Positions 36,122 through 38,383 of a DNA stretch of 64,000 nucleotides are shown here, piece after piece. Every line of letters begins with the position of its first letter. The stretch's first letter is position 1. Source of the DNA: Parcubacteria group bacterium GW2011_GWC1_36_108. Lineage in GTDB: Bacteria > Patescibacteriota > Minisyncoccia > Moranbacterales > GWC2-37-73. Location of the stretch: contig LBRD01000008.1 in assembly GCA_000991245.1 (NCBI GenBank), positions 1,686 to 65,685 on the forward strand, written 5' to 3'. Made by a program: the position numbers and the translations under genes. The notes beneath the pieces are model-generated. The model was given only the letters and a program-made list of their open reading frames with translations. It searched no databases and was not told the DNA's origin.

Positions 36122-38383
36122 TTATAAATTAAATAGTTTCTTGAATTCCTCCTCATTTAACACTTTCACTCCAAGCTTAATAGCTTTATCATATTTCGAT
36201 CCTGCATTTTCGCCGGCTACGACATAGTCTGTTTTTTTGCTGACAGAAGATGAAACGCTTCCACCCTCTCTTCTTATCATATCTTTTGCCTCGTCCCTTG
36301 TAAAGCCGGCAAGCTCTCCAGTCAATACAAAGGTTAGCCCTTGTAATTTATAACTAGCAATTTGCAACTTATCACTAAAAACAATTTTGACACCCAGCGA
36401 TTCCATTCTCTTTAGCAATTTAATATTTTCCTCATCTGAAAACCACAGCGCCAGGCTTTCAGCTGACTTTTCCCCAATACCTTTTATTCCCAGCCATTGT
36501 TCAATTGAAATTTTTGGAAACACACACACAACATCTTCCATGTTTTCAATAAAAATATTTTCTTTTTTTATTTTAACATTTGGACATTTGGATTTTATTG
36601 GAAATTGGAAATTGGAAATTGGAAATTCCGTATTAATCGCCTTAGCGATTAATACGGCTGTTTCTTCCCCTACAAATCTAATCCCTAAGGAATATAAAAA
36701 TTTTTCCAGAGAAATAGTTTTGCTTTTTTCAATTGACTCAATCAATTTTTCTGCGGATCTTTCAGCAAATCTTTCCAGCGGCTGAAGGTCGCCAACTTTC
36801 AAATCAAAAATATCAGCAAAATTAGAGACAATTCCTTCTGTCATCAATCTTTCAACAATACTTTCTCCAAAGCCAACAATATCAAAACCTTTGCGACTCA
36901 CGAAATGAACAAGCTGCCCCATCTCAACAGCAAAGCATTTTGGATTTGTGCAATAATGCGCCACACTCAGGTCATGAGGCATAGAACATAGAACATGAAC
37001 CATTCCCTCATCCCTTTCATCTCCCTTTTTCCCATTTTTTCCCTTTTTTATCTCTTTTCCTATATTTTTCCCCTCTTCACACCCTTTTTCCCCTTTTTTA
37101 GTCGTAATTTGTCTTTCTACTTTTCCCCCGCAAATAGGGCAAAAATCAGGCATTTTAAACGTTTTTTCTTTTCCTGTTCGCAAGCCTTTTACCACTGAAA
37201 CAACCTCTGGAATGACGTCTCCAGCTTTGTGGATGACCACAGTATCCCCAATCCTCACGTCAAGCCTATTTATCTCATCCTCATTATGAAGGGTCGCGCG
37301 GCTTACCACAGAGCCTGCCACGAGCACTGGACGAAGGTGCGCAACAGGCGTAAGCGCGCCAGTGCGCCCAACTTGCACCTTAATATCTTCCACCACTGTT
37401 GTCACTTGCACCGCTGGAAATTTGTACGCAATTCCCCAACGTGGAGATTTTCCCGTATAACCCAAAGCATCCTGCAATTTCCTAGAATTTATTTTGATCA
37501 CGATGCCATCGATTTCATAGTCTTGCTCATTTTTTTTCTCTATCCAGCTTTCATAAAAGTCTTGAATTTCATCCACTGATTTGCAAAGTTTATGATCAAA
37601 ATTCACTTTAAATCCAAGACTCTTCAAATGAGCTAATTCTTCAATTTGTGTCGCAGGAAGCTCCATGTTCAATTGATCAATATCGTAAATAAAAGAATCT
37701 AATTTACGCTTCGATGCAATTCTTGGATCAAGCTGCCGTACCGCTCCAGCTGCGGCATTTCGAGTGTTGGCAAATAGAACTTCCCCATTCTTTTCACGTT
37801 CAATATTCAAACGCTCAAGCTCATTCTTGCTTAGCCAACATTCACCAACCACAACTGCTGATATTTTTTCATTTAATTCCAATGGAACACTTTGAATTGT
37901 TCTGATGTTATGGGTAATATCTTCACCAATCACACCATCCCCGCGCGTAGCGCCTTGAATTAATTTTCCATTCTCATAAGTCAAAATAATTTTAAGTCCA
38001 TCAATTTTCATCTCACAGCAATATTCCAATGTTTCATCCTTGAACTCACTTTTTTCAAGCATTCTTTTAACTTTTTCATCCCATGCCTTCAGCTCCTCAT
38101 AACTAAACACATCATTAAAAGACCACTGCCTGTTAGCATGGCGGACCTTTTTAAATCCTTTAACAGCCGTTCCTCCTACACGCTGAGTAGGGCTTGTTGG
38201 TGAAAAAAATTCAGGAAACTGATCTTCAAGTTGACGCAATTCTTTTGTTAATGAGTCATAAACCACATCTGTCACATCAGGTTGATCCAAAACATGATAT
38301 CGATAACGAAGATCATCAATTTCCTTGCGAAGTTTTTCTATTCTATTTTGAGCCTGTATTTTGTCCATATTTTCATTATACAA
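36122..38383 (-). CDS. ligA: NAD-dependent DNA ligase, carrying unusual in-frame insertions
   Basis: Adenylation motif EMKIDGL, OB/Zn-finger (CPICGG…C.NP.C), HhH and a C-terminal BRCT domain. Extra segments lie in the Zn-finger (GK-rich low complexity) and before the BRCT (…[18 protein letters not shown]…). Confidence 0.9.
36600..36657. repeat. (GGAAATT)x4 heptanucleotide array followed by a perfect 13-bp-arm palindrome (ccgtattaatcgc-ctta-gcgattaatacgg), both inside the ligA coding sequence
   Basis: ggaaattggaaattggaaattggaaatt-ccgtattaatcgccttagcgattaatacgg, translated on the minus strand as …[20 protein letters not shown]…. Confidence 0.8.

Follow-up and report, generated by a model that had tools for sequence, protein, structure and literature searches.

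Rickettsia palindromic elements (RPEs) are small repeats that occur in spacers and also in frame within housekeeping genes, where they are translated and kept in orthologues (PMC10969869). The heptamers of cyanobacteria (short tandemly repeated repetitive sequences, STRRs) and of Xanthomonas (GGGAATC) are over-represented and mostly intergenic, often form inverted stem-loop pairs and have been proposed to originate by polymerase slippage (PMC4692102). Here we analyse a 64-kb stretch of DNA (from contig LBRD01000008.1; hereafter the window) of Candidatus Moranbacteria, an uncultured groundwater bacterium of the candidate phyla radiation (CPR), in which a perfect heptanucleotide array, (AATTTCC)4, lies in frame within two DNA-repair genes, ligA and recG. 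Proteins of the CPR (Patescibacteria) are known for unexplained insertions, and a perfect non-triplet microsatellite in genes of this kind would normally be expected to be purged; our literature search turned up no description of either phase variation or simple repeats in CPR/Patescibacteria.

Like RPEs and intragenic repeats resembling miniature inverted-repeat transposable elements, the cassette described here is found in spacers and in frame in unrelated housekeeping genes, at fold-compatible sites. Like the cyanobacterial and Xanthomonas heptamers, period-7 repeats are the dominant class in Moranbacteria, are mostly intergenic and form inverted pairs. The array is kept base for base even where organisms differ at one residue in three, and on one occasion it has been caught splitting the sole NAD-dependent ligase gene seen here. 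The genome sequence in hand is the 64-kb window, to which all cassette copy counts for this genome refer, and the repeat census of Moranbacteria covers 153 kb of loci (the window plus L002-L033).

One heptamer array in two DNA-repair genes

A preliminary description of the window had reported the same four-unit array in ligA and recG, and the shared peptide FPISNFQ in their products; the arrays are real and the translations read as claimed, although the recG array had been placed 10 nt too low, at 57895-57922 (Table 1). Tandem Repeats Finder delimits the ligA array to 36597-36627 (4.4 copies) and the recG array to 57905-57934 (4.3 copies), both with 100% matches, and no other perfect simple repeat in the window is as long as these runs of 31 and 30 nt. 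Both are perfect tandem repeats inside an open reading frame (ORF), with a unit length that is not a multiple of three. Half an array, (AATTTCC)2, searched with at most one mismatch, gives six matches in the window, all within the two arrays (0.19 expected; 0/100 shuffles), and seven perfect period-7 runs reach 2.5 copies or more, versus none in shuffles.

The similarity continues beyond the heptamers. After the array the coding strand reads AATAAAATCCAAATGT in ligA and AAATAAATCCAAATGT in recG, with the common tail AA(W)(W)AAATCCAAATGT, and the two copies of the cassette are identical at 42 of 44 nt. On the + strand the 5' flank of the ligA array is TTGGACATTTGGATTTTATT, and the word TTGGACATTTGGATTTT is found at 36580-36596. 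As the preliminary description had noted for the flanking word, relatives recur in intergenic DNA, at 34139-34155 (one mismatch), 32456-32472 (minus strand, one mismatch) and 32534-32550; further relatives lie at 59175-59191 and, adjoining the recG array, at 57936-57952 (minus-strand match). Allowing up to three mismatches, TTGGACATTTGGATTTT has eight matches in the window versus 1.1 expected.

Table 1. Positions within the window of the arrays, their flanks, their host genes and their intergenic relatives
Feature	Position	Strand	Basis or remark
ligA, NAD-dependent DNA ligase	36122..38383	-	Pfam DNA_ligase_aden, OB, BRCT; E. coli LigA 2owo, E=1.7e-150
ligA hairpin, CCGTATTAATCGC-CTTA-GCGATTAATACGG, 13-bp stem and 4-nt loop, directly 5' of array on coding strand	36628..36657	-	Perfect inverted repeat (13/13 bp)
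(AATTTCC)4, ligA coding strand; encodes (E)FPISNFQFP(I)	36600..36627	-	+ strand reads GGAAATT x4
A-rich tail of ligA insert, AATAAAATCCAAATGTCCAAATGTTAAAATAAAAAAAG; encodes 13 residues and holds stop codons of out-of-frame alleles	36562..36599	-	Common to recG and intergenic copies
recG, ATP-dependent DNA helicase RecG, 736 aa (P0242)	56858..59068	+	Pfam RecG_wedge, DEAD, Helicase_C, RecG_dom3_C; T. maritima RecG 1gm5, E=8e-144
(AATTTCC)4, recG coding strand; encodes 10 residues	57905..57932	+	Direct match and Tandem Repeats Finder
recG tail, AAATAAATCCAAATGTTGAA	57933..57952	+	Agrees with ligA tail at 14 of first 16 bases
Intergenic relative, AATTTCA x4.4, CAATGCCTAATTTCCAATGC, TTTGGAATTTGACATTTGGATTTTGACATTT	34049..34162	.	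Spacer downstream of gatA
Intergenic relative with inverted copies, AAATCTCAATGTCAAAATCCAAATATCCAATAAATGTCC ... TTTTGGATTTTGTTTGACATTTGACATTGAGATTTTGG	32440..32560	.	Word matches

Both arrays belong to inserts in otherwise alignable proteins. LigA residues 481-586 align with residues 430-535 of E. coli LigA and residues 625-751 with 541-669, leaving about 38 residues (587-624) where E. coli LigA has 5. The insert lies between HhH motifs 3 and 4 and, by the domain limits of 2OWO, inside the HhH domain, rather than between HhH and BRCT as originally proposed. The RecG insert comprises ~39 residues versus 10 in T. maritima RecG (between 452 and 463); it follows motif Ia and precedes motif II, in keeping with its earlier placement between helicase motifs I and II.

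The exact LigA and RecG products are recorded under Candidatus Moranbacteria and Parcubacteria group names, from Rifle groundwater and other metagenome-assembled genomes, and an NCBI contig (L035) matches the window at 100% identity across 22,247 nt. The ligA ORF starts with TTG, and the annotated product (P0241, 748 aa) begins at M6. Genes with type IV pilus Pfam labels adjoin ligA in the window.

Two further inserts were observed in the same genes. A second in-frame recG insert (58071-58128) is a 54-nt nested palindrome, CCTGTTAAAT ... CCCCGAC-TAATG-GTCGGGG ... ATTTAACAGG, and encodes HPVKSPTNGRGAKQFNRV. The RecG of the window strain and the near-identical P0121, P0243, P0244 and P0246 have it, the other 18 aligned RecG orthologues lack it, and the window contains no other copy. 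In the zinc-finger region of ligA, an insert at 37011-37099 consists of C/T-rich 29-nt and 9-nt repeats encoding 32 residues. Among 17 aligned LigA homologues it is common only to the identical P0001 (the three-unit allele described below) and P0006, and closer LigA relatives hold a different insert at this site.

Base-identical arrays in distant orthologues

LigA orthologues were ranked by protein identity to the window LigA and their arrays were read at the DNA level. All insert-bearing orthologues examined in this way have four heptamers. The array is a perfect (AATTTCC)4 in L038 (62%) and a perfect (AATTTTC)4 in L004/L009 (76%), and it takes variant forms in L011 (64%; AATTCCC AATTCCC AATGCCC AATTCCC), L028 (68%; AATTTCT AATTTAT AATTTCC AATTTCT), L030 (68%; AATTTCC AATGACC AATGACC AATTTTC) and L031 (72%; AATTTCA AATTTCA AATTTAA AATTTCA). 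In L002/L008 (82%), the closest full-length relative, the site holds an unrelated block (ATATAAC ATACAAC ATATAGC ATATAAC), and in L029 a GC-rich palindrome is nested in the block. In recG, perfect (AATTTCC)4 arrays were found in L032 (89% protein identity) and in L033 (70%), where the array is directly followed by a perfect (AAATTCA)4.7. The distribution is patchy: relatives at 62-72% have the array, while it is missing at 82-83% in LigA and at 87-90% in RecG. At least 9-10 residues of the cyclic peptide NFQFPIS are found in 9/120 LigA and 3/120 RecG orthologues, with many more degenerate; others have no such peptide, or have peptides typical of GC-rich palindromes, for example LPTGQAG, YRQAG and CHSGLDPES.

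The preliminary description had considered that orthologues might carry the same residues without a nucleotide repeat, as an ancient, fixed sequence. What emerged was a third outcome: some share the identical perfect nucleotide repeat, others have four degenerate heptamers, and still others hold unrelated small elements at the same site. Both sites behave as hot spots, at which perfect AATTTCC, AATTTTC x4, degenerate heptamers, ATAACAT-type heptamers and nested GC-rich palindromes are all found.

Conservation of the array at the level of bases exceeds that of the surrounding genes. Between the window and L038 ligA (62% nucleotide identity), the longest identical run is 48 nt, ATTAATACGG(AATTTCC)4AATAAAATCC, and the next is 17 nt; between the window and L033 recG (67% nucleotide identity), it is 42 nt, ATAAAT(AATTTCC)4AAATAAAT, and the next is 20 nt. 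Codons for conserved residues are identical 49-51% of the time elsewhere in these gene pairs, and the chance of 16 (ligA) and 14 (recG) consecutive identical codons is of the order of 1e-5 per site. Peptide-level selection by itself does not account for this: either the block is under constraint at the DNA or RNA level or it was copied recently.

Both insertion sites also harbour nested GC-rich palindromic mini-elements, for example CCTGCCTACCTGCCTACCGGACAGGCAGGCCAGACAGGCAGG (L029, about 3700-3800). Orthologues with them include P0018, P0026, P0049, P0050, P0065, P0101, P0137 and P0202, and the encoded peptides include LPTGQAG, YRQAG, CHSGLDPES and HFHGNDK. Separately, a high-GC viral contig (L039, IMG/VR UViG_3300017987_003406) carries (AATTTCC)5 at 3821-3868, directly ahead of the ATG of an ORF that begins MTTDRATIYCGECLPIMADMPDNSVDLIATDPPYY; a DPPY motif suggests that this ORF encodes a putative DNA methyltransferase.

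A natural three-unit ligA allele and a near-invariant copy number

The best database match to the window LigA is a 588-aa protein (P0001) that is 100% identical and ends in ...TEFPISNFQ. Deleting one heptamer from ligA predicts the end ...CAA TAA, exactly that of P0001. In an 11,086-nt alignment of contig L001 (ENA ERZ27254744, k141_453944) to positions 33276-44368 of the window there are 0 mismatches, and the only gap, of 7 nt, falls in the ligA array. L001 lacks one unit and is otherwise identical over 11 kb, so slippage by one unit does occur or has at least been recorded, in two contigs, of which the one examined is an independent assembly of the same strain. This natural allele bears out the earlier claim that a change of one unit frameshifts the gene. 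Unit loss ends LigA right after the array and leaves HhH4 and BRCT as a separate ORF of 139 aa, starting at an ATG.

Such variation is rare. At least 22 contigs, the longest reaching 269 kb, encode the four-unit LigA (P0241), among them contigs of strains that are 53-54 substitutions away from the window across roughly 16-22 kb, and the RecG of the window strain has four units in all versions found. We found no in-frame one- or seven-unit allele in any lineage examined. Computed alleles of both genes stop within 0-8 codons with 2, 3, 5, 6 or 8 units and read through with 1, 4 or 7. Exact look-ups of the predicted truncated LigA (2 and 5 units) and RecG (2, 3 and 5 units) returned none, a search from which other substitutions or starts would hide matches. 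With four units in these ligA contigs, in every recG version and in orthologues down to 62% identity, classic phase variation in the form put forward earlier is not supported, nor is a dedicated phase-variation switch. The ligA array locus is a ready marker for strain-level heterogeneity in groundwater metagenomes.

A heptamer-periodic repeat family in spacers

Period 7 accounts for 75 of the 244 tandem arrays in the Moranbacteria census, with diverse unit sequences. Nearly half of these (35/75) have 4.0-4.9 copies, and all nine perfect arrays of at least four copies have 4.0-4.7. Among the window arrays of at least four copies, 8/10 are intergenic and imperfect, and the two genic ones are perfect. 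The four-unit mode was seen in genes and spacers alike and with any unit sequence, longer arrays lying near 8 copies and one near 16.

The ligA and recG copies have relatives in the spacers of other Moranbacteria-like contigs. Between co-directional ORFs of two JGI contigs, L006 and L007, the junction word TAATTTCCAATAAAATCCAAATGTC lies in one half of a long imperfect hairpin, opposite GGAAATT-type units in the other half (z=-3.8 and -5.9). Like the window spacers 32440-32560 and 34049-34162, the ligA-gatC spacer of L011 consists of these same words (fold z=-2.6). With the ligA, recG and L006/L007 junctions and the excess of related words in the window spacers, the cassette is a member of a dispersed, multi-copy family. 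In ligA and recG it sits in frame at a tolerated site and varies in presence or absence among orthologues. Lineage-specific inserts, spacers filled with the same words and the occurrence of TAATTTCCAATAAAATCCAAATGTC in other Moranbacteria-like spacers uphold the earlier proposal that intergenic repeat DNA was captured in frame. No target-site duplication was evident by eye at the ligA or recG site, no transposase was linked to the cassette and no terminal inverted repeats were identified for it.

Wider searches were less productive. A metagenome scan with the junction pattern AATTTCCAAWWAAATCCAAATGT gave two hits, both in spacers of other organisms, but it is uninformative on rarity because the collection missed the JGI contigs of this same strain (L037). 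A LigA scan of genome contigs returned ~5 Moranbacteria loci and did not return the species of the window. A peptide search with (NFQFPIS)6 gave 585 candidates with 18 weak hits, all of them short (35-73 aa), spurious hypothetical ORFs; three of the four with an organism name were from filamentous cyanobacteria, and the search yielded no catalogue of further host genes.

Strain differences were also observed to cluster in spacer repeats, including, in L034, a 33-nt deletion within the inverted array between the tRNA-Met genes (33184-33264) and, in L037, several small indels. Across the 32.4-32.6 kb spacer, identity to L037 is only 83-87%, down from 99.4%, pointing to a possible recombination boundary. 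A difference of L034 at 32451-32525 was considered as an indel and rejected, as the run of N marks a scaffold gap.

A conserved hairpin beside the ligA array

The palindrome that had been reported next to the ligA array is a perfect hairpin (Table 1). Its 5' arm consists of the native A-V-L-I-A codons of HhH motif 3, and its 3' arm (A-I-N-T) opens the lineage-specific segment. In eight insert-bearing orthologues, 98.1% of the cells of the stem are paired and 6/13 pairs have changed on both sides; 0/500 shuffles match this, and slid controls are 23-41% paired (eight related sequences). Both wobble variants are G-U on the sense strand. Orthologues without the insert have no palindrome at that site, as judged by eye. 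The ligA hairpin is the main structure in the RNA fold predicted for 36540-36680 (-30.1 kcal/mol for the 141 nt; z=-4.1). Quasi-palindrome correction by template switching could keep the inverted repeat perfect and yield paired changes without structural selection, and the conservation of the stem fits both this process and selection for structure.

Read in antisense, the hairpin has CTGTTTCTTC after it and receives a terminator-like score; this T-rich run is the reverse of conserved GEET codons and may be incidental. The Rfam scan of the window identified six tRNAs and nothing else, with no family at the ligA hairpin, and a promoter scan found none near the ligA array on either strand and only two sense-strand hits at recG, equal to the shuffle expectation. 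Besides this separate 13-bp hairpin, the ligA copy has only a 12-nt vestigial partner. A search for a conserved hairpin beside the recG array found none, and the recG copy shows no folding (z=+1.6), as expected of one isolated arm of an intergenic hairpin.

Other repeats and features of the window

A third heptamer array, CATGTAA, had been described at the gatA start as three copies; it is present but extends over 35652-35681, with 4.3 copies and 95% matches. On the coding strand it reads (TTACATG)n, with an ATG in each unit, and gatA starts are called at different units (493 versus 486 aa in L034 and L035). The array is unchanged in L001 and L034-L037; nearby they differ only in L036, where a 1-nt insertion and a 1-nt deletion at 35190-35192 offset each other.

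The spacer 13489-13655 holds TTGGGGTGG 9-mers, arranged in a 30-nt higher-order repeat at 13568-13652 and G-rich on the + strand. A palindrome resembling repetitive extragenic palindromes (REPs), GTAGAGACGC-N8-GCGTCTCTAC, occurs at 2837-2891, 3139-3193, 3504-3531 and 20378-20405; its arms have 10 matches versus 0.01 expected, two of the sites lie within long ORFs (2900-3502; 17914-20604, minus strand), and its GTAG start recalls REPs and their associated tyrosine transposases (REP/RAYT elements). At about 54000-58000 the genes flip from minus to plus at a minimum of cumulative GC skew, as at a replication origin. This region includes an inverted pair of heptamer arrays, (ACAACAA)3.9 and (GTTGTTA)4.3, at 55764-55919 ahead of tRNA-Arg (55930-56003). 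A DksA/TraR-type ORF lies upstream of recG.

Origin and maintenance of the arrays

With moderate confidence, we favour a repeat cassette that became fixed in permissive loops, where it is translated as a linker and slips occasionally, and that was spread or refreshed by short-patch recombination at small-element hot spots. Both arrays would be copies of one small Candidatus Moranbacteria cassette, four 7-nt units plus the tail AATAAAATCCAAATGT, and part of the heptamer-periodic family that dominates spacers, where inverted copies could form long hairpins. One arm would sit in frame in loops of LigA (HhH motifs 3/4) and RecG (motifs Ia/II) and would probably be translated as a short low-complexity linker. 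Growth from one native heptamer to four adds 21 nt or 7 codons, the smallest in-frame expansion, which may be the reason for four units in genes. The perfect array is a slippage substrate, and on this reading the frameshift allele would be a mutational liability of the cassette rather than an evolved on/off switch. Gene conversion or short-patch recombination would do the copying or refreshing, involving either dispersed copies or co-resident lineages. With (AATTTCC)4 patchy yet base-identical in distant orthologues, such copying or refreshing, and not neutral vertical descent, is the best explanation.

Several observations weigh against this explanation. The 64 kb contain no second perfect (AATTTCC)4 donor copy beyond ligA and recG, and we only infer conversion or re-insertion. 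The identical blocks of 48 nt in ligA and 42 nt in recG could equally mean purifying selection on a DNA or RNA site. Compensatory changes in the ligA hairpin are not predicted by a purely parasitic insert unless template switching maintains the stem, and the four-unit mode is also found in spacers, where the frame argument fails. Finally, both genic copies are in genome-maintenance genes, for which the chance by coding length is ~0.006-0.012 (post hoc, for the window).

An alternative that we regard as unlikely is a functional nucleic-acid element common to ligA and recG, with (AATTTCC)4-AATAAA, together with the ligA hairpin, serving as a DNA or mRNA binding or processing site. Candidates would be a site for a regulator or an RNase, an antisense RNA that has six GGA motifs and ends at the hairpin, or a one-unit ribosome-shift track. 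A functional signal would explain the base conservation, in which the array is the longest identical stretch of each gene pair though it encodes a non-conserved insert, and in which the C-ending codons TTC and TCC are kept in an AT-rich genome. It would likewise explain the hairpin, with its 6/13 compensatory pairs and its two wobble variants as G-U on the sense strand; the terminator-like antisense hairpin with CTGTTTCTTC and the recurrence of the motif in spacers of other genomes are also in its favour. It does not explain loss in close relatives, which manage without the array, and many lineages have degenerate units. The recG array lacks the hairpin, neither array has an antisense promoter-like site (the two sense hits at recG being at shuffle level), the T-rich run may only mirror the GEET codons, and there is no Rfam match.

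A true contingency locus seems improbable. Here second-order selection would keep the tracts for a reversible split or truncation of LigA and loss of RecG, with transient changes in repair, recombination or mutation rate. The perfect non-triplet tract in both ORFs, the stops that follow every out-of-frame copy number within 0-8 codons, the maintenance of perfect tracts over deep divergence in two genome-maintenance genes, and the three-unit allele, found in two contigs as the sole difference in 11 kb, would all be expected of such a locus. As the HhH4+BRCT ORF with its ATG is intact in that allele, the off state might be a split ligase and not a null. However, four units are short for a high-rate tract, and many orthologues whose arrays are degenerate and cannot slip have nonetheless retained both the hairpin and the four units. 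Even where a bacterium has several ligases, LigA has been reported as essential (Petit and Ehrlich 2000, cited in PMC10504179), and phase-variable genes, in the accounts we drew on, mostly have surface or restriction-modification functions. A contingency switch is weakened by these degenerate arrays and by LigA essentiality, together with the near-invariant copy number in at least 22 ligA contigs and all recG versions and the lack of one- and seven-unit alleles.

It is doubtful that (AATTTCC)4-AATAAA is a conserved functional signal acting within the coding sequence itself, either as a track for a one-unit shift of the ribosome or polymerase or as a common regulator or RNase site. In the first version, codons recur 7 nt apart and the other frames stop at once, so that one allele would yield full-length and truncated LigA and RecG, and the upstream ligA hairpin would assist; in the second, the common site would co-control ligA and recG. 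The array does not qualify as a programmed ribosomal frameshift or bypass site: the former calls for a slippery X XXY YYZ heptamer ahead of a stimulatory structure, the latter for matching take-off and landing codons plus a take-off hairpin and a stop. AATTTCC is not of the X XXY YYZ form, identical codons 7 nt apart are a trivial consequence of the unit, and the only strong structure lies upstream, in ligA alone.

We consider it very unlikely that the peptide is what matters, with FPISNFQ acting as a short linear motif that docks LigA and RecG on a common partner. The same peptide does occur in two DNA-transaction proteins, unchanged in the 9/120 LigA and 3/120 RecG orthologues noted above, and it contains Q-x-x-I-x-x-F, with a spacing similar to that of the PCNA-interacting (PIP) box. 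This would leave the identical synonymous sites unexplained, many orthologues have an unrelated peptide or none, and bacterial clamp-binding motifs differ from the PIP box in consensus. An AlphaFold2 model of LigA (18-sequence alignment; mean predicted local distance difference test score 48) was too poor to place the insert or judge its exposure. That the arrays or the three-unit allele are assembly or sequencing errors is hardly credible: that allele is known only from two ENA contigs, the one examined built with k=141, but a 28-nt array is far below the 141-nt k-mer, so that graph collapse would be unexpected, and four-unit arrays are present in many independent NCBI, JGI and ENA assemblies and in orthologues.

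At least some of the LigA and RecG insertions can here be traced to a concrete DNA source, heptamer-periodic cassettes held in common with spacers. If the conservation reflects function, the array would be a new kind of coding-sequence signal linking two repair genes; if it reflects conversion, it would show small repeats spreading and remodelling core proteins in reduced genomes.

Comparison with known systems

The ligA and recG arrays share features with several described systems. As in DNA uptake sequences and uptake signal sequences, which show a bias for genome-maintenance genes, so far as the sources consulted describe them, a short conserved motif occurs in inverted pairs after genes and also within the coding regions of repair genes. 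A DNA uptake sequence proper, a fixed 9-12-mer at about one per kb genome-wide, was considered and rejected: a k-mer census of the 64-kb window gave no such over-represented motif, with a loose 10-mer core occurring 9x and AATTTCCAA 17x including the arrays. Quasi-palindrome correction could keep the 13-bp inverted repeat of ligA perfect, but it is a mutational process and not an element, and it leaves the heptamer array and its conservation unexplained.

The contingency loci of Haemophilus, Neisseria and Campylobacter are likewise perfect non-triplet repeats within ORFs that toggle the frame, and a natural allele one unit shorter exists here. Unlike them, the arrays have only four units, with a copy number essentially fixed across strains and species, and their hosts are essential or housekeeping DNA-repair genes instead of surface or restriction-modification genes. 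The heptamers of cyanobacteria and Xanthomonas differ in that the Moranbacteria units are AT-rich and diverse with a sharp mode at four, and in that copies here lie in frame in conserved genes and are nucleotide-identical between distant orthologues. Compared with RPEs (~150 nt), the cassette is short (about 45-70 nt) and built on a perfect heptanucleotide tandem array; the genes hold only one arm of the intergenic hairpin, and the embedded array can frameshift its host gene. Unlike RPEs, intergenic heptamers and contingency loci, the system described here combines a perfect, length-fixed tract with deep nucleotide conservation in two repair genes.

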